DNA of 64,000 bases from Escherichia coli (GTDB lineage: Bacteria; Pseudomonadota; Gammaproteobacteria; Enterobacterales; Enterobacteriaceae): NCBI RefSeq assembly GCF_024223415.1, contig NZ_CP100500.1; one strand, given 5' to 3'. Below the pieces are notes generated by a model. That model searched no databases. It worked only from the letters and a program-made list of their open reading frames with translations, and had not been told where the DNA came from. Positions 6,424-64,000 of this stretch are shown in pieces. The translations under genes were made by a program, and so were the position numbers. The number at the start of each line of letters is the position of its first letter. The first letter of the stretch is position 1.

Positions 6424-6821
6424 ACTGTTATATGGCGAATGACAGCAAAGGCCATTTTGTTACGGCGAAAGAAGCAGCGAAGCACAACCGCCAGGACGTT
6501 TTGTGCTGTGTGTCCTGTGGATGCCCGTTAACACTTCAGCGGGGCAATGACGGACAACCACCGTGGTTTGAACATGACCAGATGACTGTCGCTGAGAAAA
6601 TCCTGCTGCGATGCACCTGGCTTGACCCGGCAGAGAAAGAGGCCCGTCGTTTGCATCTGCAGGGTATGACGGTTCCGGATTATACGGTGAAGGTGAGAAA
6701 GTGGTTTTGTGTGATGTGTGACGAAGATTATGAAGGAGAAAAGTGCTGCCCGCGTTGTGGTACCGGGGTATACAGCAGGGAGGGGGGGCTGCAGGAAGGC
6801 AACTGGAAGGATAGGAACTGA
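6411..6821 (+). CDS. Cys-rich hypothetical protein B, paralogue of A, translationally coupled
   Basis: ATG at 6411 lies just upstream of the stop of the previous ORF (6421-6423); same Cys/PWFEH pattern. Confidence 0.55.
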   Translation: MRILNCYMANDSKGHFVTAKEAAKHNRQDVLCCVSCGCPLTLQRGNDGQPPWFEHDQMTVAEKILLRCTWLDPAEKEARRLHLQGMTVPDYTVKVRKWFCVMCDEDYEGEKCCPRCGTGVYSREGGLQEGNWKDRN

Positions 6822-7024
6822 GCGGTTCAGTCGCGGAAATCAGTTGCAGAGCTGTAATGATATCTCCGGGAGTGCTGCGTTGGTAGGGGCATCCCGGGAT
6901 AGAGAAATTTTAGCACTTTGCCCTGAATGATTGTAGACGTTCCGAGTACTCGTACCGGTCTGAGTTATTACAGTTAGATATTCACTTTTTCTCCCGCATA
7001 CTTCACATCTGTCAACGACGGATG

Positions 7025-8757
7025 AAAAGTGGTTCTTCCGCAACCTGGGTGGAAGAAAATGGATGAAACTTTCTGGCGAACAAGGATCTAAGCTGTTTTA
7101 AGTTATGGGCAACGCAATGCACTCTCTTAAGACACTTCTACAGTTACCTTGCGGATGGCGATGCAGTCGACAAATTATTAGCTCTGACGGTATAACCCTC
7201 CATCTCCACGGAAAACGCAAAACAGCACAATGTCCTGAATGCTTTAAGCGTAGCGACTCTGTTCATAGTTGTCGTCGGCGCCGGATACAGCATCTACCCT
7301 GCTCAGGGCAGACGCTATGGCTTGTATTTTCCGTCCGCCACTGGTACTGCCGTAACCCGGCTTGTTCACGTAAAATTTTTGCCGAGTCGCTTGCTCCCTT
7401 CGCCGGTTCACACCAGCAGTCTTCACAGGCGTTACAAAATTTACAACGTCAACTGGGATTAATAGCTGGAGGTGAGGCTGGAAAACGGGCTGCAACGGCA
7501 GCGGGTCTCCGTTGCAGTGCTGATACTCTTCTTCGCAGGGTATCAATACCCCGGAGACGAAACAGTCAGGCGCGCCTCATGTCGGTATTGATGAGTGGGC
7601 GTGGCATCGGGGCCACTGCTGCGGTATGTTAATAGTCAATCTTGATACTCACCGTCCCCTCGTCCTGCTTCCCGGCCGTGATCAGCGTACGCTGGCGACC
7701 TGGTTCAGAAAATATCCGGAAATACAGGTTGTCTCGCGTGATCGCAGTGGAGTCTATGCGACAGCAGCACGTGAAGGTGCACCTCAGGCCAGACAGGTGG
7801 CCGATCGATGGCACCTGCTAAAAAATATTGGTGATGAGCCTGAACGAATGATGTACAGACATATGCCTCTGATACGTCTTGTTGTCAGAGAGTTATCACT
7901 GAAGAAATCACCTGAGCCAGAAATATCTGTGCCTGTAGCATCGCTCCGTCGTCTGGAACGCCTTAAACAGCACATCCGCAAAAAACGGCATCAGCGTTGG
8001 ACAGAGGTTATGGCCCTGCATAACAAGGGATGTAGTTTCAGGGAAATATCCCGTATTACAGGCCTGTCGCGAGTGACAGTCAGTCGCTGGGTGGGTTCAG
8101 GAACATTCCCTGAAATGTCAACTAGGCCTCCAAAGCGAGGGCTTCTGGACCCATGGAGGGAGTGGTTAAAAGAGCAACGAGAATGTGGTAATTATAACTC
8201 CGGCCGGATATGGCGGGAAATGGTGGCCAGGGGGGTTACAGGCAGTGAAACCATCGTCAGGGATGCTGTTGCCAAATGGCGTAAAGGCTGGATCCCACCG
8301 GTTACTACTGCCGCAAGACTTCCTTCAGTGTCCCGGGTAAGCCGCTGGTTGATGCCCTGGAGAATAATCAGGGGTGAAGAAAATTATGCTTTCCGATTTA
8401 TTAGTCTGATGTGTGAAAAAGAACCGGAGTTGAAAATAGCGCAGCAACTGGTACTCGAGTTCTACCGTATTCTGAAAACCTAAAATAAATCACAGCTAAG
8501 CAGCTGGTTCACTCGGGTCCACGAAAGCGGCTCAGCAGAACTTCGGTGCGTAGCTGCGGGGATGGAAGCTGATGCTGCGGCTATATGTGAGGCAATCAGC
8601 AGTCGCTGGAGTACTGGTGTTGTCGAAGGTCATGTAAATCGCCTGAAGGTGCTGATACGCCAGATGTATGGTCGAGCCGGACTTGAACTACTTAGGCGGA
8701 GGGTAATGAGTCCACTGGCATGAAAATCTTCACCCAGGTTGCGGAAGAGCCACTTTT
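7025..8757 (+). mobile_element. ISL3-family insertion sequence with imperfect terminal inverted repeats, decayed
   Basis: Left end aaaagtggttcttccgcaacctgggtg at about 7025-7051 and its near-perfect reverse complement at about 8731-8757; encloses an ISL3-type transposase. Confidence 0.7.
7105..8722 (+). pseudogene. ISL3-family transposase, disrupted by a frameshift near 7588 and an in-frame TAA at 8481-8483
   Basis: N-terminal zinc-finger region (CPECF...), ...IDEWAWHRGHCCGMLIVNLDTHRPL readable only after a frame change, then ...VVEGHVNRLKVLIRQMYGRAGLELLRRRV continues in frame after the stop. Confidence 0.75.
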
Positions 8758-42903: not shown

Positions 42904-43575
42904 ATGAAGATTCTACTTATTGAAGATAATCAAAGGACCCAGGAATGGGTAACGCAGGGGCTTTCCGAAGCGGGTTATGTCATTGATGCCGTTACTGATG
43001 GCAGAGATGGGCTTTATCTTGCGCTGAAGGATGATTATGCATTGATCATTCTGGATATTATGCTTCCGGGTATGGATGGCTGGCAGATCTTACAAACGTT
43101 AAGAACGGCAAAGCAAACTCCTGTTATTTGCCTTACTGCAAGAGATTCTGTCGATGACAGAGTCAGAGGGCTGGACAGTGGGGCAAATGATTATCTGGTA
43201 AAACCTTTTTCATTTTCTGAGTTGCTGGCAAGGGTTCGGGCACAATTAAGGCAACATCACGCTTTGAATTCAACACTAGAAATCAGCGGCTTAAGAATGG
43301 ACTCTGTTAGTCAAAGTGTGAGCAGGGACAATATCAATATTACACTGACGCGCAAGGAGTTTCAGTTACTTTGGCTACTGGCCTCCAGAGCTGGCGAAAT
43401 TATACCCAGAACGGTTATTGCGAGTGAAATTTGGGGAATCAACTTTGATAGTGATACCAATACGGTGGATGTCGCCATTCGCAGGCTCCGCGCAAAAGTT
43501 GATGATCCTTTTCCTGAAAAGCTAATCGCCACAATCCGGGGGATGGGCTATTCATTCGTAGCGGTAAAAAAATAA
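42904..43575 (+). CDS. hprR: OmpR-family response regulator
   Basis: 223 aa from MKILLIEDNQRTQEWV. Confidence 0.9.
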   Translation: MKILLIEDNQRTQEWVTQGLSEAGYVIDAVTDGRDGLYLALKDDYALIILDIMLPGMDGWQILQTLRTAKQTPVICLTARDSVDDRVRGLDSGANDYLVKPFSFSELLARVRAQLRQHHALNSTLEISGLRMDSVSQSVSRDNINITLTRKEFQLLWLLASRAGEIIPRTVIASEIWGINFDSDTNTVDVAIRRLRAKVDDPFPEKLIATIRGMGYSFVAVKK

Positions 43576-44933
43576 TGAAAAGATTATCTATAACCGTCCG
43601 TTTAACCTTGCTTTTTATATTGCTGCTGTCTGTTGCTGGCGCTGGAATTGTATGGACTCTCTATAATGGCCTGGCAAGTGAGTTGAAATGGCGCGATGAT
43701 ACAACACTCATTAACCGGACAGCGCAGATCAAGCAGTTGTTAATTGATGGGGTAAATCCAGATACGTTACCTGTGTACTTTAACCGGATGATGGATGTTA
43801 GTCAGGATATCTTGATCATTCATGGTGATAGCATCAACAAAATTGTTAACCGGACGAATGTCAGTGATGACATGTTAAATAACATACCTGCTACTGAGAC
43901 AATCAGCGCAGCTGGCATTTACAGAAGCATTATTAATGACACAGAGATAGATGCTTTACGAATTAATATTGATGAAGTTTCGCCATCATTAACGGTTACT
44001 GTGGCTAAATTGGCTTCAGCCAGACATAACATGCTTGAACAGTATAAAATTAATAGCATTATAATTTGCATTGTCGCCATTATACTGTGCTCAGTATTAA
44101 GTCCGTTGTTAATCAGAACGGGGTTACGAGAGATCAAAAAGTTGAGTGGTGTAACGGAAGCGCTGAATTATAACGATAGCCGAGAGCCTGTTGAGGTTAG
44201 CGCATTACCGAGAGAACTAAAACCTCTTGGGCAGGCGTTGAATAAAATGCACCAAGCCTTAGTCAAAGATTTTGAACGCCTAAGTCAATTTGCTGACGAT
44301 CTCGCTCATGAACTTAGAACGCCAATTAATGCATTACTGGGTCAGAATCAGGTTACGCTCAGTCAAACCAGAAGTATCGCTGAATATCAAAAAACAATTG
44401 CCGGAAACATTGAAGAGCTGGAAAATATTTCGCGGTTAACAGAGAATATACTGTTTCTTGCCAGGGCAGATAAAAACAATGTTTTGGTGAAACTGGATTC
44501 GCTTTCTCTCAATAAGGAAGTCGAAAATTTGTTGGACTATCTTGAATACCTTTCAGACGAGAAAGAGATTTGCTTTAAGGTCGAGTGCAATCAGCAAATC
44601 TTTGCGGATAAAATTTTACTGCAACGAATGTTATCGAATCTTATTGTTAACGCCATTCGATATTCACCAGAAAAATCGCGCATTCATATAACCAGTTTTC
44701 TTGATACCAACGGCTATCTTAATATTGATATCGCCAGCCCTGGAACGAAAATTAATGAGCCTGAAAAACTCTTCCGTAGATTTTGGCGGGGAGATAATTC
44801 GCGTCATTCCGTAGGTCAGGGACTTGGTCTTTCTTTAGTCAAAGCGATTGCCGAATTACATGGAGGAAGTGCTACGTATCACTATCTCAATAAGCATAAC
44901 GTGTTCCGAATTACGTTACCGCAAAGAAATTAA
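43575..44933 (+). CDS. hprS: sensor histidine kinase
   Basis: 452 aa; HAMP/HisKA/ATPase-type sequence; overlaps the hprR stop. Confidence 0.9.
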   Translation: MKRLSITVRLTLLFILLLSVAGAGIVWTLYNGLASELKWRDDTTLINRTAQIKQLLIDGVNPDTLPVYFNRMMDVSQDILIIHGDSINKIVNRTNVSDDMLNNIPATETISAAGIYRSIINDTEIDALRINIDEVSPSLTVTVAKLASARHNMLEQYKINSIIICIVAIILCSVLSPLLIRTGLREIKKLSGVTEALNYNDSREPVEVSALPRELKPLGQALNKMHQALVKDFERLSQFADDLAHELRTPINALLGQNQVTLSQTRSIAEYQKTIAGNIEELENISRLTENILFLARADKNNVLVKLDSLSLNKEVENLLDYLEYLSDEKEICFKVECNQQIFADKILLQRMLSNLIVNAIRYSPEKSRIHITSFLDTNGYLNIDIASPGTKINEPEKLFRRFWRGDNSRHSVGQGLGLSLVKAIAELHGGSATYHYLNKHNVFRITLPQRN

Positions 44934-45040
44934 CATAGGGCTTCAGTACGCCATAAATTAACCGTGAAAAAACGCAGTCACGTCGTAAGTACTAACGCAG
45001 CTGCGATTGATTATGCGCTTACATTCAAACGTAACAGGGA

Positions 45041-45892
45041 TTAACCCGCGTAAGCTGCCAGCATTTCCTGCGCCGCCAGTTTACCCAACGCATTCGCTGC
45101 GAAAGGACTGTCGCCGGTGAGAACTTTACGGTCCTTATGTACTCGCCCGGTGATGTCGTCATTAATAATGCTCATGCCCATTTTCTTCAGCTCTTCGCCG
45201 AAGTACCAGGTGAGATGACCCGGCATATAGCCAATATCTGGCGTTTGTTTGTCTGCGGCGTCTGGGAATGCGCAAATGGAATAACCATTCAGTGGGTTAT
45301 CGCCGTGGCGAAGCGCCAGAAATGCCGCCGGGCCGTGGCAAAGGGAGATAACAAAACGGTCATTTTTGATTGCCCACTGTAAAGCGGCAGCCACGTCCTG
45401 GCTTTCTGGTAAACCAATAAGTGCGCCATGACCACCAGGAACAAAGATTGCTGCATATTCGCTGTCAGCGTTGAGGCTGGCGACAACATCCGCGAGTTTC
45501 TTCGGATTGCGGAACAACGATTTATGCTGCTCAAAGAATGGCATTACTTTTTCATCTTTGTGTGGCATAGCCCAGTATTCAAACTTGGTCATCAGACCGG
45601 AAATGGTCGCCACTTCGAATTCGAAACCTGCAGCATGGAGATGATACAACGGCAGCAACGTTTCAATCGGATGGTTACCGGTCGAGAACAGTTTTCCGTT
45701 ATCGGTCGGCAAATAACGTTCGTCCGCGGCGATCACCAGAATTTTATGTTTCCCGCGATACGGTTTTGGATAGTCCACGCCATCAAGATCAGAGACGGGA
45801 CTCGTATATTGGCTAAGCGAATATTCTGAAGGGAAGAATGCATTATCTTCAGCAATATCGACCTGCGGGTTTTTACTTGTTTGAACAGTCAT
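45041..45892 (-). CDS. hchA: Hsp31 chaperone / glyoxalase III
   Basis: 283 aa, MTVQTSKNPQVDIAEDNAFFPSEYSLSQ. Confidence 0.95.
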   Translation of the reverse strand: MTVQTSKNPQVDIAEDNAFFPSEYSLSQYTSPVSDLDGVDYPKPYRGKHKILVIAADERYLPTDNGKLFSTGNHPIETLLPLYHLHAAGFEFEVATISGLMTKFEYWAMPHKDEKVMPFFEQHKSLFRNPKKLADVVASLNADSEYAAIFVPGGHGALIGLPESQDVAAALQWAIKNDRFVISLCHGPAAFLALRHGDNPLNGYSICAFPDAADKQTPDIGYMPGHLTWYFGEELKKMGMSIINDDITGRVHKDRKVLTGDSPFAANALGKLAAQEMLAAYAG

Positions 45893-46483
45893 AGTGTATT
45901 CCTTATTGTTGCTTAGTTAGGGTAGTCACTATATTTGCGACTGAGCTGGTCGTTATTTTTACCCAGGCTGGAAAATTGAGTCAATATATCGAAAGCGGTA
46001 GTCGGCGGGCGTAAGTATGTAATGATGATGCTGCACTGGTGTTGAATATTATTCACACCAACTTTTCCTTATTGAGCAACGCCGTCGCAAGTGGCCTCAA
46101 TGATTTTAGACCATTATCAGAGATCCGGGGCGGCAGGGAGAGATTTAGTGCTGTGGAATATTGTGGTGCTGATGAATATTTATATCCCGGATTGGCAGAG
46201 AAAAAGCTTTTTTCATGCACTATTTTTGCAAATATTTCTATATGGACGGCGGTTTTGTTGCGGATTAATTCATAAAGAAATGCATTTGGGTGTTGGCTGG
46301 AAGAAACGCTGGTAGATTTTATTGAGCCAGGAGGGGCGGGGTAATGTGCTGTATCGATATGCTTTGGCAATTGCGTGTGCCGCAGATGGAGATGAAATGC
46401 CAATAAAAAAGCCTGAGTTCGATGAGGGACGAACTCAGGCTAGTGTTTAGTTTTACAGTAACACGCCGCGGCGCGTTGGCTGA

Positions 46484-47671
46484 TTAGAACTGGTAGACTA
46501 AGCCCACAGCAACGATATCATCGGTAGCGATACCGTTTTCTTTGTAGAAGTCGTCGTCGTTGTCCAGCAGGTTGATTTTGTAATCAACGTAGGTGGACAT
46601 GTTTTTGTTAAAGTAATAGGTCGCACCGACTTCAACGTATTTAACCAGATCTTTGTTTGCGTAGTGATGATTACCCTGGCTATCAAAGTTATCACCATTC
46701 AATCCGCCTAAATCCTTACCTTTAGATTGCAGGTAAGCGATGGACGGGCGCAGACCGAAGTCGAACTGATACTGAGCAACAACTTCAAAGTTTTGGGTTT
46801 TGTTAGCGATGGCATCAGCATCACCGTAACCAGTCATGTTACGGGTTTCAGCATACATAGCTGCTAAGTAAACGTTATTAGCGTCGTATTTAGCACCAAC
46901 GGTCCATGCTTCTGCTGTTTCACCGCCAGCAGTTGCATCGAAGCGATCTCCATAACGAGTGTTATGCAAACCTTTGTGAACCTGATTGTCAGTACGGTCA
47001 GAATTAGAATATGCAGCACCCAGACTTAAACCAAAGTCAAAGTCATAGGAAGTGGACATACCGTAACCGTCGCCGTTCTCTTTAGCAAGTTTACGGCCAT
47101 TCCCGTTACCTGAACCTTCTTGATCAAATAATCCGCTTTTCTCGTTGTTACCTTGATACTGGAGTGCAAAGTTCAGACCATCAACTTGACCAAAGAAACC
47201 ATTGTTACGATAGGTTGCTACGCTGTTAGCACGACCGTTCATGAAGTTGTCGGCACCAGCATAGGTATCGCCACCAAATTCTGGCAGCATATCGGTCCAT
47301 GCTTCGATGTCATATACGACACCGTAGTTACGACCATAGTCGAAAGTACCATTCTGACCAAAGCCTAAACCTGCAAATGCCAGACGCGTTGCGGTATTAC
47401 CTTTGTCGCTTTCAGGACCGTTTGCGCCAATGTTAAATTCCCACTGACCATAACCAGTGAATTGGTCAGCGATCTGAGTTTCACCTTTGAAACCGATACG
47501 GGCATATGACATGTCGCCATCGCTGCCAGCATCATCAGAGAAGTAGTGCAGGCCCGCTACTTTTCCGTACAAATCCAGTTTATTACCATCTTTATTATAG
47601 ACTTCAGCCGCATTTGCTGCGCCAGCAACTAATAACGCCGGGACCAGCATTGCCAGAACTTTTCTTTTCAT
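46484..47671 (-). CDS. yedS: general outer-membrane porin (OmpC/OmpF/NmpC family), intact
   Basis: 395 aa from [22 protein letters not shown]-terminal ...VGLVYQF beta-barrel signature. Confidence 0.8.
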
Positions 47672-48235
47672 TATGTATTCCCTTGTGATTATAATCTTCA
47701 TGGATATATCAATAAGTGCCGTTATCCAAAAAAGCACATTTGGATACTATTCTATGAAGTTCATTTTATTTTAAGGGTTACATGTAACAAATGTATTTAA
47801 AAGATTTCAAAATGTTTCCAATCTATTTAATATAATTCAGAATTATGAATTCTAGATATAAGCATTCATGAGATTTATAAATATATATCAATATGTTATG
47901 AGTTAATCGGAAAGATAGGGAGTATCAATGAGTGTTGCGCTAAACGGCTGGTGTGATCACGCGCATATTAATGAAGGCATAAAAAAAAGCCGGCATCATG
48001 CCGGCCCAAAAAATATAAACAAGACGATAAAAGGCTAATAACGGGGTTATCATGACACAGAAATCAAAAAAGGTATAATTGAATTCGGTGCTAATATATT
48101 GTTTAGGTGAATTAATAAAACCATTACCATAGATAATAATAAATCTTTATTGCTGTTTTTCCGGTAATTATTGCCATTGCGCAAAAATTATCTATTTGTT
48201 CAAAAAATGATTGAGTCTTGACTGGCTCATCCAAT

Positions 48236-48601
48236 GTGAAAAAATGTGACTTTTATCACATAATAGTACTAAGTCTGAATTTTCCGGGTTATCTCAAAAT
48301 GGAATACGGTTCGACAAAGATGGAAGAGAGACTCTCTCGCAGTCCTGGTGGCAAACTGGCTTTGTGGGCTTTCTATACATGGTGTGGCTATTTTGTCTGG
48401 GCAATGGCGCGTTACATCTGGGTGATGAGCCGGATCCCCGATGCCCCTGTGTCGGGATTTGAAAGCGATTTAGGCTCTACCGCGGGAAAGTGGTTAGGGG
48501 CACTGGTTGGCTTTTTATTTATGGCTCTGGTCGGGGCATTGTTAGGCAGCATTGCCTGGTACACCCGACCTCGTCCCGCACGTAGCAGACGCTATGAATA
48601 A
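48236..48601 (+). CDS. yedR: small inner-membrane protein
   Basis: 121 aa assuming a GTG start; two hydrophobic helices. Confidence 0.7.
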   Translation: MKKCDFYHIIVLSLNFPGYLKMEYGSTKMEERLSRSPGGKLALWAFYTWCGYFVWAMARYIWVMSRIPDAPVSGFESDLGSTAGKWLGALVGFLFMALVGALLGSIAWYTRPRPARSRRYE

Positions 48602-48640: not shown

Positions 48641-49336
48641 ATGGACGTACAACACTGGCAGGCACAGTTCGAAAACTGGTTGAAAAACCATCACCAGCAC
48701 CAGGACGCGGCCCATGACGTGTGTCATTTTCGCCGCGTCTGGGCTACGGCACAGAAGCTGGCGGCAGATGACGATGTCGATATGCTGGTGATTTTAACCG
48801 CCTGTTATTTTCACGATATTGTGAGCCTGGCGAAAAATCATCCACAACGGCAGCGTTCTTCAATCCTGGCGGCAGAAGAGACGCGTCGCCTGCTCCGTGA
48901 AGAGTTCGTGCAATTTCCGGCGGAGAAAATCGAGGCCGTTTGTCATGCCATTGCCGCTCACAGTTTCAGCGCGCAAATCGCCCCCTTAACAACGGAAGCT
49001 AAAATCGTCCAGGATGCGGATCGGCTGGAAGCCCTGGGGGCGATTGGCCTGGCGCGCGTCTTTGCTGTTTCAGGGGCATTGGGCGTGGCGCTGTTTGATG
49101 GCGAAGATCCGTTCGCACAGCATCGCCCGCTGGATGATAAACGCTACGCGCTGGATCATTTCCAGACTAAGTTGCTGAAGCTACCGCAAACCATGCAAAC
49201 CGCAAGAGGCAAGCAGCTGGCGCAGCACAACGCGCAATTTTTAGTCGAGTTTATGGAGAAGCTCAGTGCCGAACTGGCGGGGGAGAATGAAGGTGTCGAT
49301 CACAAGGTGATAGATGCGTTTTCACCCGCGGGATAA
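48641..49336 (+). CDS. yedJ: HD-domain phosphohydrolase
   Basis: 231 aa from the internal Met; HD motif ...YFHDIV. Confidence 0.85.
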
Positions 49337-49402
49337 GCGCGTGGCCCTAAATGGCTGTAATTATGTTAACCTGTCGGCCATCTCAGATGGCCGGTTAAAT
49401 CT

Positions 49403-50821
49403 ATGCAGGAAAATATATCAGTAACCGATTCATACAGCACCGGGAATGCCGCACAGGCAATGCTGGAGAAACTGCTGCAAATTTATGATGTTAAAACGCT
49501 GGTGGCGCAGCTTAATGGTGTGGGTGAGAATCACTGGAGCGCGGCAATTTTAAAACGTGCGCTGGCGAATGACTCGGCATGGCACCGTTTAAGTGAGAAA
49601 GAGTTCGCCCATCTGCAAACGTTGTTACCCAAACCACCGGCACATCATCCGCATTATGCGTTTCGCTTTATCGATCTATTTGCCGGAATTGGCGGCATCC
49701 GTCGCGGTTTTGAATTGATTGGCGGACAATGCGTGTTTACCAGCGAATGGAACAAACATGCGGTACGCACTTATAAAGCCAACCATTATTGCGATCCGGC
49801 GACGCATCATTTTAATGAAGATATCCGCGATATCACCCTCAGCCATAAAGAAGGCGTGAGTGATGAGGCGGCGGCGGAACATATTCGTCAACACATTCCT
49901 GAACACGATGTTTTACTGGCCGGTTTCCCTTGTCAGCCATTTTCGCTGGCTGGCGTATCGAAAAAGAACTCGCTCGGGCGGGCGCACGGTTTTGCCTGCG
50001 ATACCCAGGGCACGCTGTTTTTTGATGTGGTACGCATTATCGACGCGCGTCGTCCGGCGATGTTTGTGCTCGAAAACGTCAAAAACCTGAAAAGTCACGA
50101 CCAGGGTAAAACGTTCCGCATCATCATGCAGACGCTGGACGAACTGGGCTATGACGTGGCTGATGCAGAAGATAACGGGCCGGACGATCCGAAAATCATC
50201 GATGGTAAACATTTTCTGCCGCAGCACCGTGAACGCATCGTGCTGGTGGGTTTTCGTCGCGATCTTAATCTGAAAGCCGATTTTACTCTGCGTGATATCA
50301 GCGAATGTTTCCCTGCACAGCGAGTGACGCTGGCGCAGCTGTTGGACCCGATGGTCGAGGCGAAATATATCCTGACGCCGGTGCTGTGGAAGTACCTCTA
50401 TCGATATGCGAAAAAACATCAGGCGCGCGGTAACGGCTTCGGTTATGGAATGGTTTATCCGAACAATCCGCAAAGCGTCACGCGTACGCTGTCTGCGCGT
50501 TATTACAAAGATGGCGCGGAAATTTTAATCGATCGCGGCTGGGATATGGCCACGGGTGAGAAAGATTTTGACGATCCGCTGAATCAGCAACATCGTCCAC
50601 GTCGGTTAACGCCTCGGGAATGCGCGCGCTTAATGGGTTTTGAAGCGCCGGGAGAAGCGAAATTCCGCATTCCGGTTTCGGACACTCAGGCCTATCGCCA
50701 GTTCGGTAACTCGGTGGTCGTGCCGGTCTTTGCCGCGCTGGCAAAACTGCTTGAGCCAAAAATCAAACAGGCGGTGGCGTTGCGTCAGCAAGAGGCACAA
50801 CATGGCCGACGTTCACGATAA
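49403..50821 (+). CDS. dcm: DNA-cytosine C5 methyltransferase (CCWGG)
   Basis: 472 aa; motifs FAGIGG and GFPCQPFS. Confidence 0.95.
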
Positions 50822-51272
50822 GGCCACTCGCAGCAAAAATATGCGCGCGATTGCCACGCGTGATACGGCGATTGAGAAGCGCCTCGCCAGTCTGTTAACC
50901 GGGCAGGGCCTGGCGTTTCGCGTTCAGGACGCCAGTCTGCCCGGAAGCCCGGATTTTGTCGTTGATGAATATCGCTGCGTGATATTTACCCATGGCTGCT
51001 TCTGGCATCATCATCACTGCTATCTGTTTAAAGTGCCTGCGACTCGAACCGAGTTCTGGCTGGAGAAGATAGGTAAAAATGTTGAACGCGATCGCCGCGA
51101 TATCAGTCGTTTGCAGGAACTCGGCTGGCGCGTACTGATTGTCTGGGAGTGTGCATTACGTGGGCGCGAGAAGCTGACGGATGAAGCGCTTACCGAGCGT
51201 CTGGAAGAGTGGATCTGCGGCGAAGGTGCCAGCGCGCAGATCGACACGCAGGGGATTCATTTACTCGCTTGA
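50802..51272 (+). CDS. vsr: very-short-patch repair endonuclease
   Basis: 156 aa from [14 protein letters not shown]; overlaps the dcm 3' end by 20 bp. Confidence 0.95.
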
Positions 51273-52181
51273 TGCGTCCTGAATAACTGGCGCAACTAAG
51301 GGTTTTGCCGGGAAGAGATATTTTCCCAACGTGACCAGTACCACCGCGAAGACAATTACGCCGAGCGCCAGCCATTCAATCTTCGACAGCGTCTCTCCGC
51401 CCAGTCCCGTACCCAGCAAGACCGCGACCACCGGGTTAACGTAGGCGTAGCTGGTGGCGAGAGCCGGACTGACATTACGGATTAAATACATATAAGCGTT
51501 GATGGCGATAATCGAACCAAACAGCGCCAGATAGCCGACCGCAAGGAAGCCTGAAAGGGAAGGGAGCGCCGTCAGTTTTTCACCTGCAATCATCGACGCG
51601 ATCATTAACACCACGCCTGCCGCCAGCATCTCAATCGCACCCGCCATCATCCCTACAGGTAAGGTAATGCGCGAGCCATAAACCGAGCCAAACGCCCAGC
51701 TAATCGAGCCGATTAAAATCAGAATCGCGCCCCACGGATTGCCGCTTAAATTTCCACCGCTATTGAGCATGATGATTCCGGCAAGCCCAATGGCAATACC
51801 CACCCATTCCAGTTTGCGCGTTTTAATGCCAAACAGGCGGCTGAAGCACAGGGTAAAGAGGGGCACGGTTGCAACCACTACGGCGGCGATGCCGGAAGGA
51901 ACATTTTGATGTTCGGCAACCGTCACCATGCCATTACCGACAGCCAGCAATAATAGGCCAATCAGCGCGGCATTAAGCAGCGGACGTAGCGGGGGGAGTT
52001 TGTGTCCGCGCAGTAGCAAAAATGCCAGCAATAAAATACCGGCTGCCAGGAATCGCACGCCTGCCATCATTAACGGAGGCCAGCTTTCCACGCCAATCCG
52101 AATGACAAAATAGGTTGAGCCCCAAATGATATACAACGCAAACAGCGCGCCAAAAAGCGGTAACAACTGGCGGAAACGCAT
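51261..52181 (-). CDS. yedA: EamA/DMT-family transporter
   Basis: 306-aa 10-TM protein. Confidence 0.9.
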   Translation of the reverse strand: MRFRQLLPLFGALFALYIIWGSTYFVIRIGVESWPPLMMAGVRFLAAGILLLAFLLLRGHKLPPLRPLLNAALIGLLLLAVGNGMVTVAEHQNVPSGIAAVVVATVPLFTLCFSRLFGIKTRKLEWVGIAIGLAGIIMLNSGGNLSGNPWGAILILIGSISWAFGSVYGSRITLPVGMMAGAIEMLAAGVVLMIASMIAGEKLTALPSLSGFLAVGYLALFGSIIAINAYMYLIRNVSPALATSYAYVNPVVAVLLGTGLGGETLSKIEWLALGVIVFAVVLVTLGKYLFPAKPLVAPVIQDASSE

Positions 52182-52353
52182 AATCCCTCACGGTGGAAAT
52201 AAAAAGGTGGGTCATAGTAAACGTGAAAATCATTCTGCTGACGAGAGATATAATTGCACTTGATTGTTAAAAAAATGTTGACCTGTGAAGCAAGTATCAG
52301 AGCTGCCGTTTTTGCTTCATACTTACACCCTTCAACAATAAAAATGAGAGGGA

Positions 52354-53271
52354 ATGCTTTTGGCCGGGAGTAGTTTACTGACGTTGCTCGATGATATCGC
52401 CACACTGCTGGACGATATCTCCGTGATGGGCAAACTGGCGGCGAAGAAAACCGCCGGTGTATTAGGGGATGACTTATCGCTCAATGCGCAACAAGTTTCA
52501 GGCGTGCGGGCCAACCGGGAACTTCCCGTGGTCTGGGGCGTGGCGAAAGGATCGCTGATTAATAAAGTGATTCTGGTGCCGCTGGCGCTGATCATCAGTG
52601 CGTTTATCCCGTGGGCGATTACGCCTCTGTTGATGATTGGTGGCGCGTTTCTCTGCTTTGAAGGAGTAGAGAAAGTGCTGCATATGCTGGAGGCTCGTAA
52701 ACATAAAGAAGATCCGGCGCAGAGCCAGCAGCGTCTGGAGAAGCTGGCGGCGCAGGATCCGCTGAAGTTTGAAAAGGACAAAATAAAAGGGGCGATTCGT
52801 ACCGATTTTATATTGTCTGCGGAAATCGTCGCCATCACGCTGGGGATTGTGGCCGAAGCGCCGTTGCTTAATCAGGTGCTGGTGCTTTCAGGCATCGCGC
52901 TGGTAGTGACCGTGGGCGTCTACGGTCTGGTAGGGGTTATCGTTAAGATTGATGACCTGGGGTATTGGCTGGCGGAAAAATCCAGCGCGCTGATGCAGGC
53001 ATTAGGTAAAGGGTTATTGATCATTGCGCCCTGGTTGATGAAAGCATTATCGATTGTCGGCACGCTGGCGATGTTCCTCGTCGGCGGCGGGATTGTGGTA
53101 CATGGTATTGCGCCGCTGCATCACGCCATTGAACATTTCGCCGGGCAGCAAAGTGCAGTGGTGGCGATGATATTACCGACTGTTTTAAATCTGATTCTTG
53201 GATTTATCATCGGCGGCATCGTGGTGCTGGGAGTGAAAGCCGTAGCGAAAATACGCGGTCAGGCACATTAA
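52354..53271 (+). CDS. yedI: DUF808 inner-membrane protein
   Basis: 305 aa. Confidence 0.85.
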
Positions 53272-53349
53272 TACTCGCACAGGCTATTATGCAAAATTCG
53301 CCATCTTCAACTAAGGTGAACAAGTTTCACTCGAAAAAAGGAGGCGAGT

Positions 53350-53592
53350 ATGAGCTTTATGGTTAGTGAGGAAGTTACGGTTAAAGAGGGCGGCCCGCGG
53401 ATGATTGTCACTGGATACTCCAGCGGTATGGTTGAGTGTCGTTGGTATGACGGTTACGGGGTCAAGCGGGAGCTTTTCATGAAACCGAGCTTGTTCCGGG
53501 GGAGGGGAGTCGTTCTGCGGAAGAAGTTTGAAAGGGTATCATTAACACCAGGCCGGATCACATCCGGCCTGGTGTGCCAATGCCTGCAATGA
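53350..53592 (+). CDS. yodC: small DUF2158-like protein; 3' end uncertain (a perfect hairpin lies inside the predicted C-terminus)
   Basis: MSFMVSEEVTVKEGGPRMIVTGYSSGMVECRWYDGYGVKRE. Confidence 0.5.
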   Translation: MSFMVSEEVTVKEGGPRMIVTGYSSGMVECRWYDGYGVKRELFMKPSLFRGRGVVLRKKFERVSLTPGRITSGLVCQCLQ

Positions 53593-53701
53593 ATGATAGT
53601 CGCGTCTTATCATGCCACCATTATAAAATTATCGCTGTTTTGCGGTACGCTATCGCCAGGTTATGCCAGAATCATAAAAAAGCAGGTTGGGAGTCGTCAG
53701 G

Positions 53702-56226
<2,525 letters not shown>

Positions 56227-56405
56227 TTACCAGGATGATTCTCAAAACAGCACAAATTATCAAAGATGATTTTTTCGGGAGCGATCCCGCTGACGCCAGA
56301 GCCACCAAGGGGTGACGTGCGTCACATTTCTATTCATAAGTAGCGTTAATCATTCATATAGCGAATATTTTCTTGTCAGCGAAAAAAATTGCGGATAAGG
56401 TGATG

Positions 56406-56492
56406 AACACATCAGATTTCCTGGTGTAACGAATTTTTTAAGTGCTTCTTGCTTAAGCAAGTTTCATCCCGACCCCCTCAGGGTCGGGATTT
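56406..56492 (+). ncRNA. dsrA: DsrA small regulatory RNA (activates rpoS, represses hns)
   Basis: AACACATCAGATTTCCTGGTGTAACGAATTTTTTAAGTGCTTCTTGCTTAAGCAAGTTTCATCCCGACCCCCTCAGGGTCGGGATTT matches DsrA as recalled, including its terminator. Confidence 0.9.
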
Positions 56493-56505
56493 TTTTATTG
56501 TGCAT

Positions 56506-56733
56506 TCAACGATTCACTTCAGAGACGCTGAAGTCATGAATATCCAGTTCGAAGGCATCCGCCAATTCACGCCATGTATGATATTCACGTCCATCGACGC
56601 TAACGTGTTCAGAATCGTTCTGGCTGCGATGAACCTCGCTTTCGCTAATTTCATTGATCGCCGCCAGCAGGGCATCGACATCGACGCTGACCTCACGTTT
56701 TGCGGTATCGCTGTACTCTTTTGCGGTTTTCAT
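56506..56733 (-). CDS. yodD: small stress-induced protein
   Basis: 75 aa from MKTAKEYSDTAKREVSVD. Confidence 0.85.
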   Translation of the reverse strand: MKTAKEYSDTAKREVSVDVDALLAAINEISESEVHRSQNDSEHVSVDGREYHTWRELADAFELDIHDFSVSEVNR

Positions 56734-56805
56734 CATCTTTCCTCGCAACCGTTACTCTGTTGTTGCCGCCAGTCGTTAAGTCCGCCTGGCATCTCTTAAG
56801 TATAG

Positions 56806-57084
<279 letters not shown>

Positions 57085-57127
57085 TCTTATTCAGCCTGAC
57101 TGGTGGGAAACCACCAGTCAGAATGTG

Positions 57128-57751
57128 TTAGCGCATGTTGACAAAAATACCATTAGTCACATTATCCGTCAGTCGGACGACATGGTAGATAACCTGTTTA
57201 TTATGCGTTTTGATCTTACGTTTAATATTACCTTTATGCGATGAAACGGTCTTGGCTTTGATATTCATTTGGTCAGAGATTTGAATGGTTCCCTGACCTG
57301 CCATCCACATTCGCAACATACTCGATTCGGTTCGGCTCAATGATAACGTCGGCATATTTAAAAAAGAGGTTATCGTTGTCTCTTTTTTCAGAATATCGCC
57401 AAGGATATCGTCGAGAGATTCCGGTTTAATCGATTTAGAACTTATCAATAAATTTTTTCTGACCAATAGATATTCATCAAAATGAACATTGGCAATTGCC
57501 ATAAAAACGATAAATAACGTATTGGGATGTTGATTAATGATGTGCTTGATGTGCTGACTGTTAGAAGCATCATGGATGAAACAGTCCTCATTAATAAACA
57601 CCACTGAAGGGCGCTGTGAATCACAAGCTATGGCAAGGTCATCAACGGTTTCAATGTCGTTGATTTCTCTTTTTTTAACCCCTCTACTCAACAGATACCC
57701 GGTTAAACCTAGTCGGGTGTAACTACATAAATCCATAATAATCGTTGACAT
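57128..57751 (-). CDS. rcsA: LuxR-type auxiliary regulator of capsule synthesis
   Basis: 207 aa, [24 protein letters not shown]. Confidence 0.95.
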
Positions 57752-58040
57752 GGCATACCCTCACTCAATGCGTAACGATAATTCCCCTTACCTGAATATT
57801 TCATCATGACTAAACGGAACAACATGGGTCACCTAATGCGCCACTCTCGCGATTTTTCAGGCGGACTTACTATCCCGTAAAGTGTTGTATAATTTGCCTG
57901 GAATTGTCTTAAAGTAAAGTAAATGTTGCGATATGTGAGTGAGCTTAAAACAAATATTTCGCCGCAGGAGTATCCTGGAAGATGTTCGTAGGTATTATTT
58001 TTCGGATAATCCTTAGGATAACATGATAAACGTTACGGAA

Positions 58041-58826
58041 TTATATTAATGGCAATTCACTAATAATATCAGCCAGCAAATTAAACATCTCACTGAATAA
58101 ATGTTCGCAAAAAGGCGCAATTAACGGCATTAATGCCGCCATTAAAGAGATACCGACAGTCAGAGTTAATGGAAATCCAATAACAAAAATGGATAATTGC
58201 GGGGCCATACGATTCAGTAAACCTAATGCCAGATTCAGGGTCAGCAGCAGAGTAATGAGCGGTAACGCCAGCATCAGCCCGTTAAGGAAAATCAAACTCC
58301 CTGCTTTGGTGAGTGCCAGAAACGCATTGCTGTTCAACGGTTCGCCACCAATCGGCAGGGTGTGAAAGGTATCGACCAGCAGTGAAATCAACCATAAATG
58401 ACCGTTAAATGTCAGGAACAGCAGTAACGCCAGCATATCCATGATACGCGCTAGAACGGGCATGTTGAGATGGCTGGCCGGATCGACAAACGTCGCAAAT
58501 GACAGCCCCATTTGCAGACCGATAATTTCGCCAGCGGTTCGCACAGCGGCAAAGGCAAATTGCATGGTGAAACCAAGCGCAATGCCGATCAGGATCTGCT
58601 GCACGGCCAGCCACAGAGCAAAGAACGAAAAAACAGGAACATCGTTGGCAGGTAATGATGGGGCAATAGCGAACGTGATCATCATTGCCAGACCCAGTTT
58701 TACCCGCTTCGGCACGCTGCGTTCGCTCAGAATTGGCGCGGTAGAAATGAGCGCCAGCACGCGCAGTAACGGCCAGAAGTACAGACTTAGCCAGGAAAGC
58801 CATTGATCGCTTGTCACCTGCAACAT
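58041..58826 (-). CDS. fliR: flagellar export apparatus protein FliR
   Basis: 261 aa from [19 protein letters not shown]. Confidence 0.9.
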
Positions 58827-58833
58827 AGTACGG

Positions 58834-59103
58834 CTACCCGATGGTATACGGCAGGTTAGTGAACAAGGTGCGGACGTAATCCAGCAACAGATTGAGCATC
58901 CACGGTCCGGCAATAATAATGGCAATAAATACGGCGATGATTTTCGGAATAAACGACAGCGTCATTTCGTTAATCTGGGTGGCGGCCTGCAAAATACTGA
59001 TGATAAGGCCCGTGACCAACGCTACCAACAATAGCGGGGCAGCCAGTGCCAGCGCGACTTTCATCGCTTCAGTCCCCATCATCATGACCGATTCAGGTGT
59101 CAT
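58834..59103 (-). CDS. fliQ: flagellar export apparatus protein FliQ
   Basis: 89 aa. Confidence 0.95.
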
Positions 59104-59112
59104 TTTGCCTCT

Positions 59113-59850
59113 CTAGCTGTAAAAGCTCTGCGCCAGCGAACCGACCAGCAATTGCCAGCCATCCACCAGTACAAACAGCATCAGTTTAAAGGGCAGAGCA
59201 ATGGTGGCGGGGGGAACCATCATCATCCCTAATGCCATCAACACGCTGGCTATCACCAGGTCGATAATCAAAAAAGGGATGAAAATCGTGAAGCCTATCT
59301 GAAATGCGGTTTTCAACTCGCTGGTCACGTAGGCCGGGAGCAAAATGCGCATCGGCACGGCTTCAGGTCCCTGCAACGGGTCGGTATTCGCTAGTCTGGC
59401 AAACAACCCTAAATCTGCCTCACGGGTCTGACGCAGCATAAACTCACGTAGCGGCTGCGCCCCTTTTTCCAGCGCCTCCTGCATTGATATTTTCTCTTCG
59501 CTGAATGGCTGGTACGCATCGACATAAATTTTGTCGATCACCGGTGACATAATAAAAAAGGTCAAAAATAGTGCCAGCCCCAGCAATACCTGGTTAGGTG
59601 GCGCGGAGGGCGTTCCCAGCGCGTTACGCAATAAACCAAAAACAATGATGATGCGGGTGAAACTGGTCATCATCAGTAAAATTGCCGGAATAAACGTCAA
59701 CGAGGTGATGAACACCAGCGTCTGCACCGGGAGCGACCAGCTTTGTCCACCGCCAGGCAGCGGCTGGCTGGTGATACCCGGCAGTTGCGCGAAGGCGAGG
59801 GGCGTAACCAGCCAGAGAAGGACAGGTGCGATAGACAACAAACGACGCAT
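59113..59850 (-). CDS. fliP: flagellar export apparatus protein FliP
   Basis: 245 aa with signal peptide. Confidence 0.95.
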
Positions 59851-60218
59851 CAGGATCTCCCACTACGCTTAAGCAAATTTTTCATGACCGACTGAAAATC
59901 GGTTTGCGGTATCTCTTCTGTTGGTGCTGAAGGGGGAAGTTTATGCAGCAGATTGATTTGCCCTGCGGTAACGCCGAGCACCAGCCGTGCATCTTCCACA
60001 TCGACCACCACAACCCGTTCACGCGCGCCCAGCGAAGCACTGGCGCTAATTTTCAGACCGTTAACGCCAGTGCGTTTCGGGGCAAATCCCAACCGTTTTA
60101 CCAGCCAGGCAGCAGCGAGGATCAGGGCAATAATGGCGATGAGTGCGCCGCTGACCTGCAGCAGTGGCGCAGCAGAAACCGGCGTGGAAGATTGCACAGT
60201 AGCGTGGTTATTCATCAC
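59850..60218 (-). CDS. fliO: flagellar protein FliO
   Basis: About 121 aa, single TM; operon position. Confidence 0.85.
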
Positions 60219-60631
60219 TAACGGCTCAGGCGACGCATTCGCTCAGACGGAGTAATGATATCGGTGATCCGCACGCCATATTTATCGGCAACGACCACCA
60301 CTTCGCCCTGGGCGATTAAATAACCGTTGATCAGAATATCCAGTGGTTCGCCCGCCAGACCGTCCAGCGCCACGACGGACCCTTGCGTCAGACGCAACAG
60401 CTCTTTGATGGTCATCCGCGTACGGCCCAGCTCGACGGTCAGCTTGACCGGAATATCCATTATCAGGTCGATATCCTGCAACGTTCCGCTGACATCACCA
60501 CCGCCAAATTGCTGGAACACCGCGTCGGCAGCGCTTTTGCTGCTGGTTGATTTTTGTTCGCTCAACGCTTCAGCCCACAGATCGTCCATTGCGCCGTTGT
60601 TGTCATCGGCCGGATTATTCATGTCACTCAT
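60218..60631 (-). CDS. fliN: flagellar motor switch protein FliN
   Basis: 137 aa. Confidence 0.95.
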   Translation of the reverse strand: MSDMNNPADDNNGAMDDLWAEALSEQKSTSSKSAADAVFQQFGGGDVSGTLQDIDLIMDIPVKLTVELGRTRMTIKELLRLTQGSVVALDGLAGEPLDILINGYLIAQGEVVVVADKYGVRITDIITPSERMRRLSR

Positions 60632-61632
60632 TTGGGCTGTTCCTCGTTCAGAGAATTTAAAATCGGGTTAATCAAATGTTCTATCCGTAACGCATACTGA
60701 CCGTTGAGAGTGCCGTACTGACTGGTCAGCACCGGGACGCCGTCAACATGGGCGATGATGCGATCGGGTTTTTCTATCGGCAGGACGTCGCCGGGTTTCA
60801 GTTTTAAAATCTGCGACAGGCGTAGCGAGATATCGGCAAAGTTGGCGACCAGCTCCAGCTGTGAATGCTGCACCTGGCGCACCAGGTTATCGCGCCAGTT
60901 CTGATCTTCATTACGCGAGTTTTCCAGCGGCGGGTTAACCAACAATTCCCGTAGCGGCTCGATCATGCTGAATGGCAGACAGATATTAAATTCGCCGGTC
61001 AGGTTGCCAATCTCCACATGGAACGGCGTGTTAACCACAATGTCGTTCGGCGAGGTGGTGATATTGGTAAATTTCACCTGCATTTCCGAACGCACGTACT
61101 CAACTTCCAGCGGATTAATCGCCTTCCAGGCGTCGCTATAGCCTTCAAGCGCCAGCTTTAACATGCGGTTGATGACGCGCTGTTCGGTATGGGTAAACTC
61201 GCGACCTTCCACTTTGGTCGGGAAGCGTCCATCGCCGCCAAACAGGTTATCCACGGCGATAAACACCAGACTCGGTGAAAACACCACCAGCCCTGTGCCG
61301 CGCAGCGGTTTCAGATGGATAAGGTTCAGGTTGGTCGGCACCGGCAGGTTGCGGGCAAATTCATGGTACGGCTGAATGCGGATGGCCCCGACGGTTATAT
61401 CCGGGCTACGACGCAGCAGGTTGAACAGCCCCATACGAAAATGGCGGGCAAAGCGCTCATTAATGATTTCCAGCGCCTGCAAACGTTCGCGCACAACCCG
61501 TCGTTGGGTATTCGGATCGTACGGACGAATGTCACTTTCGCCGCTAACACTGGCTGTCGGTTCGTCTTTGACTTCGCTGTCACCATTCAACAGCGCATCA
61601 ATTTCAGCTTGAGAAAGAATACTATCGCCCAT
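60628..61632 (-). CDS. fliM: flagellar motor switch protein FliM
   Basis: 334 aa from MGDSILSQAEIDALL. Confidence 0.95.
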   Translation of the reverse strand: MGDSILSQAEIDALLNGDSEVKDEPTASVSGESDIRPYDPNTQRRVVRERLQALEIINERFARHFRMGLFNLLRRSPDITVGAIRIQPYHEFARNLPVPTNLNLIHLKPLRGTGLVVFSPSLVFIAVDNLFGGDGRFPTKVEGREFTHTEQRVINRMLKLALEGYSDAWKAINPLEVEYVRSEMQVKFTNITTSPNDIVVNTPFHVEIGNLTGEFNICLPFSMIEPLRELLVNPPLENSRNEDQNWRDNLVRQVQHSQLELVANFADISLRLSQILKLKPGDVLPIEKPDRIIAHVDGVPVLTSQYGTLNGQYALRIEHLINPILNSLNEEQPK

Positions 61633-61636
61633 GTCG

Positions 61637-62101
61637 TTATCGCAGAATAAAAGCGGTATACAGCACGTCGGTGACATCCTGTTTCGGTTGCCCGGCAACA
61701 AGCGGGGTGGAAAGCGTGGTTTTAATCTCGGCAATCAGGTTTTTCTTGCCTTCTTCTGTCGCCAGTACGGCAGCATCCTGACGCGAAAACAGTAACAGCA
61801 AACGGCTACGGACTTCCGGCAAATACTCACTCAGCCGCGAGCGGGTAGCTTCATCTTTCAGGCGCAGGGTTATGCCGATATAAAGTACGCGATCTGCATC
61901 GCCCAGATTGACCGTAAAGGTATCCAGCGCATAGAAGACCGGGGAGGGCACGACGCGTTGCTGCGCTTTGTCGTCAGCGGCAACCTGATGCGAATGCCAG
62001 TAGCTGTAACCTGCGCTGGCACAGGCCGCGAGGGTAATGAATACCAGAATCGGGATCCAAAGCGATCGCTTGCTTTTCTTGCTTATCGCGTAATCAGTCA
62101 T
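61637..62101 (-). CDS. fliL: flagellar basal-body-associated protein FliL
   Basis: 154 aa. Confidence 0.95.
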
Positions 62102-62205
62102 GTGTTGCGGTCTTCCTGTGTCGCTACTGCTTATCGGCTAATTATCCTGCGTCTTGAGCGCAACAAAGCGGGGAAAAGACGCGGATTACGGTGCTACCTC
62201 TGACG

Positions 62206-63333
62206 TTAGGCGAAAATATCAACGCCGCTGTTGCCTGTTACACGTACTTGTAAAGAGACGGGAACCGGAAGCGTATCGTCGTCTTCCCCCGCCAGAGGTT
62301 CATGGTTTGCTGTGCGTTGGCTTTGCTGTTGCTGGGAAGCGGCCTGCTGCTGACCACTAAAGCTTTCGCCACTGATGTTGCTTTGCCCTAACTGAATGCC
62401 ACTTTCGGCCAGCTGCGTTCGCAGTACCGGAAGCGCTGCTTCCAGGGCGGCGCGTACGTGTTGATGCGGTGAAACCATCTGGATTTGCGCCTGGTTATCA
62501 TCCACTTTGAGGGAGATTTGCACTTCACCTAAATCCTGCGGGTGCAGACGCAACTCTGCACTTTGTTGCCCCTGGCGGGTGAACAGCGAAATATGCTGGC
62601 TTAATGATTGTTGCCATTCGTGAGAACCCAGCGGTGCACTCAACACAGGCGCGGCGACGGTGGGCAGTGGCTGTGTCTGGTGTGGAGTGATTAGCGGGCT
62701 GGCGGCAGCGGTCACCGGTGAAGGTGTGCTGATGACTTCCGCTTTACTCTGGGCTTCTGCTACCAGCGGTGTTAATGGCTGAGCTGGCGTGCCGGGGGCA
62801 TCATCAGGCTGTGCTGTTGTGAGTTGCGCAGAAGTCAGTTTTGTGAAGAGCGTTGGTTTCTCTGCCGGTAACACGGTTGACGGCACATCAGTCACTTTGG
62901 GCGTATTGTCAAAACCCGGCAACATCGCAAAAAGGGCGCTCAGGCTTGCGGTGACGTCTTCATTCAGATCATCCGCTTTTTCGTCTTTTGCCGTATTGTT
63001 GCCAGCCACCGCAGCCAACGTCATCGTTTGAGCGGTGGTTAATGGTGTTGATGTGGATTGTTCGTCGTTGATGACAGGCGGTGTTTCATCCACGGGGATC
63101 AGTAAATCCGCTTGTTGCGCGTCGGCAAGAATATCGCTGATCAGCGGCTCGCCTTTTGTCGTGGGCTTATCTGTTGCCACCAGCAACTGGGGGGCCGCTT
63201 TGTCGGTAGTTGTCTCGCCTGCTAATGCTTCGCTCAACAACGCGAGAAAATCTTGTGCAGCATCGCTGGCTTTGCCGCCAGGCAATGTGGTGGTGTCAAC
63301 GTCGGCGGTAATTAAGGGCGCTAAGCGAATCAT
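62206..63333 (-). CDS. fliK: flagellar hook-length control protein FliK
   Basis: 375 aa, Pro/Gln/Thr-rich. Confidence 0.9.
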
Positions 63334-63773
63334 TCAGGTTTCCTCATGGCGGCGCGCTGGGCGAACTCATCCATCTTTTTCTGATCGAGGCGGTTTTCTG
63401 CAAGCAGTGCCGCCGTGGATTGCCGTTCCTGCAGTGTCTGCCAGGCCTGCAAACGTTGTTTCTTTTCTCGCCAGCTGTTCAGGGCAATGTCAACTTTCTG
63501 CGTCCACTGATTAAGTTGCTGGCGATGCTGAGTAATGGCTTTTTCCAGCGTCTGGATAAACTGCTGATAGTTGATCCAGCGGTTGCTGGTCATCCCGGCA
63601 CTCATATCGCTGTTGAGGTTATTGCGATATTCATTCTGATAATCGATCAGCATTTTGAGCTGTTCTTCCGCCTGCTGACACCCGCGACGCATTTCACCCA
63701 GCAGGCGCGCGGCATCCTCTACCTCTTTTTCTGCCAGATCTTTCAGGGTCGCCAGCGCGCCATGTTCTGCCAT
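63330..63773 (-). CDS. fliJ: flagellar export chaperone FliJ
   Basis: 147 aa coiled-coil protein. Confidence 0.9.
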
Positions 63774-63791
63774 CTGCCGTTATCTCCTGGG

Positions 63792-64000
63792 TTATGACAC
63801 TGTCGGGAAAATACGCTCCAGCCCCTGGAGAGACGCTTCCCAGTCCGCACGTTCAAAAATGCCTTGTTGCAAATAGCCCTCCAGCTGCGGCCACAGGGCG
63901 ATGGCTTTGTCGAGCATCGGATCGCTGCCTTTGGCATACGCGCCGACGCTAACCAGATCGCGGTTACGCTGAAAACTCGACAACAGCTGTTTGAAGGTGC
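63792..64000 (-). CDS. fliI: flagellum-specific ATPase FliI, C-terminal part only (gene continues beyond the window)
   Basis: C-terminal sequence ...[14 protein letters not shown]; frame open to the window edge. Confidence 0.8.

Follow-up and report, generated by a model that had tools for sequence, protein, structure and literature searches.

The 64,000-nucleotide stretch of Escherichia coli DNA analysed here (contig NZ_CP100500.1; hereafter the window) very probably carries an intact, selectively maintained allele of yedS (ompS1), a fifth general porin locus of the OmpC/OmpF type that would be expressed conditionally. The six-frame list of open reading frames holds a minus-strand frame at 46484..47737 that encodes 417 aa from a GTG, and an in-frame ATG gives a product of 395 aa (Table 1). 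The RefSeq CDS called on the identical sequence in strain WG5 has the same start and stop as the 395-aa frame. Both the coordinates and the length of the intact yedS-type porin gene put forward in the original prediction are thus confirmed. All 13 upstream regions compared, which come from four genera, keep the AAGG of its Shine-Dalgarno sequence.

Table 1. Features of the yedS locus in the window (positions count from the first nucleotide of the window)
Feature	Position	Strand	Remarks
hprS	43575-44933	+	Flank
hchA	45041-45892	-	Flank, on the hprS side of yedS
Intrinsic terminator	46402..46441	-	12-bp stem (7 G-C pairs), 8-nt loop, T-run; 43 nt past the stop codon
yedS CDS	46484..47671	-	395 codons plus TAA stop (46484-46486); ATG at 47671
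Codon 162 (CAA, Gln)	47186..47188	-	TAG in K-12 yedS
Signal peptide, codons 1-21	47609..47671	-	Cleavage before AEVYNK; aligns with the signal peptides of OmpC, OmpN and OmpF
Predicted RybB pairing site (5' 16 nt of RybB)	47651..47668	-	mRNA +4..+21, codons 2-7
Conserved proximal block	47672..47822	-	5' UTR, promoter candidates, OmpR-box-like repeats GAAACATTTTGAAAT / ACATTTGTTACATGT
Shine-Dalgarno AAGGGA	47679..47684	-	7 nt upstream of the ATG; read from the sequence
Weak sigma-70-like promoter candidate	TTGTTA 47785-47790; TAAAAT 47763-47768	-	16-nt spacer
rseX small RNA gene	47982..48071	-	Rfam RF01401, 97.8 bits (gathering threshold 50), E 1.4e-13, full length
rseX terminator	48007-47987	-	Own terminator of rseX

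The yedS copy of K-12 MG1655 (b4496) is annotated as a pseudogene and occupies the same slot as the window gene, flanked in the order hchA-[yedS]-rseX-drpB. Alignment and translation locate two lesions in it, an in-frame TAG in place of glutamine codon 162 and a 1-bp deletion at about nucleotide 663 of the CDS (about 47009 in the window). K-12 yedS was formerly split into three b-numbers (b1964-b1966), and this three-way split agrees with the presence of two lesions, one stop and one deletion. The statement that the K-12 gene is a pseudogene is therefore borne out by its annotation and by both lesions, and the overlooked frameshift that could have undermined the original prediction did not appear: aligned to K-12 yedS and translated, the window gene is free of both K-12 lesions and shows no frameshift and no internal stop over its 395 codons. 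The two copies are homologous over the whole gene with a mean column identity of 92%, and they share the same upstream region and rseX gene. Identity reaches ~97-98% over ~480 nt at the 5' end and ~180 nt at the 3' end, and the central third is a mosaic (~80% identical) with indels of 9, 24 and 9 bp. According to the paralogue alignment and the AlphaFold2 model, this central third encodes the surface loops L4-L7. Several versions of the gene have been broken independently, the K-12 copy among them. The K-12-centred view of the gene is corrected accordingly, as the pseudogene is the state of K-12 and some other strains and not that of the species.

The N-terminus of YedS matches the signal peptides and cleavage sites of OmpC and OmpN at almost every residue of the alignment, the mature chains in the PDB begin at YedS query residue 21-22, and the protein ends in VGLVYQF, the final YQF being invariant in 38 homologues. 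These features point to a cleavable Sec signal peptide and to the C-terminal Phe for outer-membrane assembly. The Pfam family Porin_1 (PF00267) matches YedS over profile positions 1-337 of 337 with an E-value of 3.7e-142 and 474 bits, which excludes a chance match. The claimed signal peptide and C-terminal beta-barrel signature have thus been recovered, the former as an OmpC-like leader and the latter as the YQF end together with the full-length Porin_1 match. The best relatives of YedS in the PDB are OmpK37 of Klebsiella pneumoniae (6V78, E-value 1.5e-145; 63% identity in the structural alignment), followed by OmpK36 and OmpC. An AlphaFold2 model built on 38 homologues, of moderate confidence (pLDDT 73.6, pTM 0.73), is an all-beta barrel with low confidence at the signal-peptide junction and in loops 177-192 and 234-239. 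Foldseek comparison of this model with OmpK37, OmpK36 and OmpC returned E-values of 1e-42 to 1e-45 and target-normalised TM scores of 0.91-0.92, consistent with the 16-stranded beta-barrel of general porins. The loop 3 motif LPEFGGD lies at residues 129-135. Residues K37, R58, R96, R147, D121 and E131 (precursor numbering) are invariant in comparison with OmpC, OmpF, PhoE and OmpN, and the 38 homologues show little or no variation in the PEFGGD motif or at the basic positions K37, R58, R96 and R147. This pattern argues for an L3 constriction loop that would face a basic cluster on the barrel wall.

YedS is 68-71% identical to OmpN, 62-65% to OmpC, 54-63% to OmpF and 54-61% to PhoE, ranges that span BLASTP and MAFFT figures. 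Judged by these comparisons, it is a distinct paralogue in the OmpC/OmpF/PhoE general porin family. Its closest paralogue group comprises E. coli OmpN together with the OmpK37 and OmpS2 group. However, ompN lies in the context uspF-ompN-micC-ydbK, so YedS is not its positional orthologue, and YedS has 395 aa and longer loops L4, L5 and L7 compared with 377 aa in the OmpN group. The same three loops are also longer than in OmpC. K-12 OmpC (PDB 2J1N) and YedS have a common family and fold, near-identical signal peptides, the PEFGGD motif and an upstream OmpR-box 11-mer. The RefSeq/PGAP product name of the identical sequence is 'porin OmpC' (WP_000824410.1; PGAP name ompC), and the NCBIfam model of that name scores YedS at 542.7 bits against a cut-off of 484, as would suit a gene that is the strain's OmpC itself. 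It is nevertheless extremely unlikely that it is, since this NCBIfam model describes a subfamily and is not an equivalog, YedS is nearer to OmpN than to K-12 OmpC, and the gene sits away from the ftp-ompC-micF-rcsD locus and has no adjacent micF. Its position at the yedS locus refutes an identification as OmpC proper, the b2215 orthologue. K-12 yedS as a query also finds a median of three matching places per genome, indicating that other porin loci coexist with this one. Against the NCBIfam equivalog models of OmpF and PhoE, YedS scores below both cut-offs. The RefSeq name 'porin OmpC' on a yedS paralogue can mislead automated porin typing.

The surroundings of the gene place it firmly at the yedS locus. 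The rseX gene lies directly upstream of the yedS regulatory region on the same strand, at the position where K-12 annotates it, and is followed by drpB, yedJ, dcm and vsr in the order found around K-12 yedS. The yedS-type identity assigned in the original prediction accords with this position between hchA and rseX-drpB-yedJ-dcm. In a comparison of loci, a porin gene lies beside dcm-yedJ, with drpB where it is recognisable, in many genera, including Citrobacter, Superficieibacter, Klebsiella, Enterobacter, Lelliottia, Buttiauxella, Pluralibacter and others. The syntenic porins are identical to YedS at 94% of amino acids in E. albertii, 76-80% in Citrobacter and 68-72% in K. pneumoniae ATCC 13883. 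The presence of a porin next to dcm-yedJ across so many genera indicates an old resident locus and not a recent insertion. The converse, that a foreign porin from a source such as Salmonella or a prophage was recently acquired beside hchA, draws on the low GC of the yedS region, on the dS of 0.19-0.64 between E. coli alleles, and on a speculation in PMC8313858 about a Salmonella origin of the rseX-yedS region. We consider it highly improbable, because the dcm-yedJ-(drpB)-porin order is also that of E. albertii and the other genera, the window has no mobile-element genes beside yedS, and the flanks are collinear with K-12, down to a yedS-hchA spacer of 592 bp in both. The pattern is consistent with a long-resident locus at which homologous recombination has swapped alleles.

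Several minor features of the neighbourhood were recorded. The rseX gene is without annotation in the RefSeq records of WG5 and of the other non-K-12 genomes inspected; its 5' part differs between strains and its terminator is conserved. The yedS-hchA spacer gave no match in an Rfam scan, and it contains a 78-codon open reading frame on the plus strand (46039-46275) that is annotated as a hypothetical protein in WG5. In genomes with other porin classes, the spacer holds different hypothetical open reading frames of 64-136 aa, on the strand opposite to the porin. The drpB gene is flagged as a pseudogene with a frameshift or internal stop in several genomes, some of which have an intact porin.

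Counterparts of YedS outside Escherichia can be named with differing certainty. In K. pneumoniae ATCC 13883, a 381-aa porin (positions 7001-8143 of locus L018) lies in the dcm-yedJ-drpB context. It is not OmpK37, to which it is 69.5% identical. PMC7157821 (Rocker et al. 2020) describes OmpK38 as a second ompK37-like gene defined by synteny, a description that an identity of 69.5% to OmpK37 fits. The syntenic Klebsiella porin is probably this OmpK38, and if so, YedS and OmpK38 would be positional orthologues. For Salmonella, ompS1 is given as a synonym of yedS in PMC2731931, and an E. coli protein of 89% identity goes by 'outer membrane protein S1' in one source. None of the 80 loci listed in our comparison is a Salmonella ompS1 locus. 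The sole Salmonella match among them is a 383-aa OmpC-subfamily porin of Salmonella enterica subsp. diarizonae that is 66% identical to YedS (positions 7001-8152 of locus L038). It lies between rstA and rstB, in the context pntA-ydgH-...-rstA-porin-...-rstB-tus-fumC, which is a locus other than that of yedS, and it is probably an OmpS2/OmpN-type gene.

Intact yedS is widespread. Complete E. coli genomes with the identical 1188-bp gene (100%) number 24; among them are E. coli C, NCTC122, C122 and WG5 as well as isolates from pigs, people, birds, seawater and soil. E. coli C/WG5 serves as a standard host for coliphages. The exact protein is found on at least 1000 public contigs under the name 'MULTISPECIES: porin OmpC [Enterobacteriaceae]', with 1201 members in its 90% cluster. 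In a protein search, E. coli, Shigella and E. albertii yielded full-length relatives by the thousand, with 'outer membrane protein S1' and 'outer membrane protein yedS' among their names. We sampled 20 of 40 evenly spaced rows from the 4,885 complete genomes matching yedS, the spacing following the ranking of the matches. All 20 matches sit between drpB and hchA, and the porin is annotated as intact in 14 of them, each uninterrupted in our own translation. The rarity of an intact copy that the original prediction implied is thus not upheld, as intact is the commoner state. The porin is disrupted in the remaining six sampled genomes by independent lesions. Strain SY3626C5 has the K-12-type stop and frameshift, and the cattle strain 7784 has a frameshift in a 96%-identical 1187-bp allele that matches those of two further sampled genomes and has the length found in three O157:H7 genomes. 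Three further disruptions are insertions of IS3, IS2 and IS1, and the sixth is a frameshift in an allele of the 352-aa class with an adjacent IS30. K-12-type yedS sequence occurs at ≥99% identity in 388 genomes; the identity bands of the nucleotide search do not count full-length alleles, as 5' matches of 93-110 nt at 95% share the bands. An intact yedS is hence an ordinary and already known condition, annotated in thousands of genomes and with a functional YedS published in 2013. On its own, it matters little.

Where it is intact, yedS is under purifying selection. Compared with ten intact alleles and orthologues, the window gene gives an overall dN/dS of 0.06-0.19, indicating that purifying selection maintains it. 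Split by region, dN/dS where computable is 0.03-0.08 for the barrel and 0.08-0.24 for the external loops, synonymous sites being saturated for one allele. Purifying selection on the intact gene implies that it is in use.

The upstream region is conserved close to the gene. The proximal ~150 bp are conserved among Escherichia, Citrobacter, Superficieibacter and Klebsiella, and the more distal sequence is not. Within this block, the 11-mer ACATTTTGAAA at 47805-47815 recurs exactly 166-176 nt upstream of K-12 ompC, where the OmpR C1 box lies; it occurs once in the window, with 0.10 occurrences expected by chance. There are two or three promoter candidates for yedS, equally weak, of which one is given in Table 1. 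When the sequence upstream of yedS was aligned with its counterparts at ompC and ompN, short motifs were shared, and no convincing homology emerged overall. GC is 22-30% over 47700-48300.

Two T>C substitutions private to the window, at 47703 (-32) and 47777 (-106), fall within the cross-genus conserved block; over the 404 bp upstream of yedS, nothing else separates the window from WG5. Both are absent from every other Escherichia sequence aligned, and T stands at -32 in all 12 other sequences aligned. They could change expression in either direction. These two private changes at conserved upstream positions, together with the frequent loss of the locus (6/20 sampled genomes, through independent stops, frameshifts and IS1, IS2 and IS3 insertions), lend something to the reading that the open frame is intact yet functionally dead or dying here, permanently silenced by a regulatory mutation as a pseudogene in waiting. 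This is unlikely, given that the identical CDS is shared by 24 other complete genomes from unrelated sources, that the dN/dS values record long-term purifying selection on the allele class of the window, and that the Shine-Dalgarno sequence, start codon and terminator are all intact. A maintained, conditionally expressed gene is the reading that we follow below.

Post-transcriptional control by small RNAs was addressed by duplex prediction. For RybB, a sigma-E-dependent small RNA, RNAduplex predicts a pairing with yedS of -17.2 kcal/mol (z -3.1; equalled by 3 of 300 shuffles). Its position corresponds to that of the ompN site, and its strength is comparable to the ompC and ompF controls. The predicted site is in keeping with PMC2731931, in which yedS mRNA dropped 2.5-fold when sigma-E was induced in K-12. 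It suggests a post-transcriptional shut-off of yedS through codons 2-7 in envelope stress. Neither MicF nor MicC produced a signal on the yedS leader in a crude duplex search (z +0.39 and 0.00, respectively), and the controls of the search worked (MicF-ompF z -3.7; MicC-ompC z -4.9). The YedS described in 2013 is reported to admit carbapenems, to affect carbapenem susceptibility and to be subject to MarA- and MicF-dependent repression. Set against this MicF control, our null result for MicF on the yedS leader leaves the post-transcriptional picture incomplete.

Transcriptional control may resemble that of the quiescent porins. In the laboratory, OmpN and OmpK37 stay quiescent. The Salmonella porins OmpS1 and OmpS2, also quiescent, are silenced by H-NS and derepressed by LeuO (PMC4264507), with StpA joining H-NS in the silencing of OmpS1, and the AT-rich upstream DNA and OmpR-box-like sequence of yedS would fit the OmpS1 type of control. 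H-NS also represses rseX, the neighbour of yedS (PMC8313858). From the action of H-NS on rseX and the quiescence of OmpS1 and OmpS2, we infer that yedS is only weakly expressed in standard culture and is switched on by certain conditions. The richness of its upstream DNA in AT suggests silencing by nucleoid proteins of the H-NS type, and the OmpR-box-like promoter region suggests OmpR-dependent activation. By analogy with these nearest relatives, and with the AT-rich upstream DNA, an extra porin expressible under some conditions is better supported than an extra expressed porin.

Once made, YedS would be exported by the Sec pathway and would form a predicted 16-stranded beta-barrel with an L3 constriction loop, through which small hydrophilic solutes would pass by passive diffusion. 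If expressed, it would give the cell a further permeability route, open to beta-lactams for instance, and a surface structure specific to the strain. A precedent comes from a carbapenem-resistant clinical E. coli isolate (Warner et al., Antimicrob Agents Chemother 2013;57:1935), in which an active yedS porin gene occurred together with marR inactivation, according to PMC4048246. The yedS gene of that non-K-12 isolate is intact, as in the window, and active. Strains with intact yedS would hold a spare general porin that could restore or alter the entry of beta-lactams and carbapenems upon loss of OmpC and OmpF, and the gene is worth weighing when porin-loss resistance genotypes are read. YedS could also act as a phage or colicin receptor.

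The slot itself merits more attention than the intact yedS gene. Judging by the window together with loci L087-L099 and L103-L108, different E. coli genomes carry at least four highly divergent classes of porin in the drpB-[porin]-hchA slot. Their lengths and identities to the window YedS are 392-404 aa and 83-100%, 387 aa and 70%, 357-371 aa and 54-56%, and 352 aa and 53%. In the 357-371-aa and 352-aa classes, which are less like YedS than OmpC is, LVEWGGD replaces LPEFGGD in loop 3. All four classes have the first ~30 codons and the upstream promoter block in common. Inactivation at the slot is frequent and independent across lineages. The synonymous divergence of 0.19-0.64 noted above lies within class A and is far above typical E. 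coli core-gene values. It is possible, though we hold it only tentatively, that the slot is a long-lived variable porin locus at which diversifying or balancing selection by phages, colicins or host immunity acts on a conditionally expressed surface protein, with the window allele being an expressed variant. If true, the allele would give the strain a specific receptor and permeability phenotype.

The window is not strain WG5, although its yedS is 100% identical to those of WG5 and E. coli C. Taken over its whole length, it differs from WG5 by 1-3% in the part beyond ~49 kb and in further patches, and positions 1-7553 have no counterpart in the corresponding WG5 stretch. The best 18-kb match among 5,426 complete genomes is 99.3% identical. 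Between 34 and 49 kb, near-identity to WG5 and E. coli C is broken by a cluster of 24 differences in hprS (~44000-45000), and from 49000 to 64000 (dcm onward) the window is 1-3% divergent from WG5. This change from near-identity to divergence at ~49 kb suggests a recombination breakpoint close to yedS. In place of window positions 1-7553, WG5 has a degraded island with cbtA/cbeA, yeeS/yeeT, the group II intron gene ltrA, IS fragments and several frameshifted metabolic genes.
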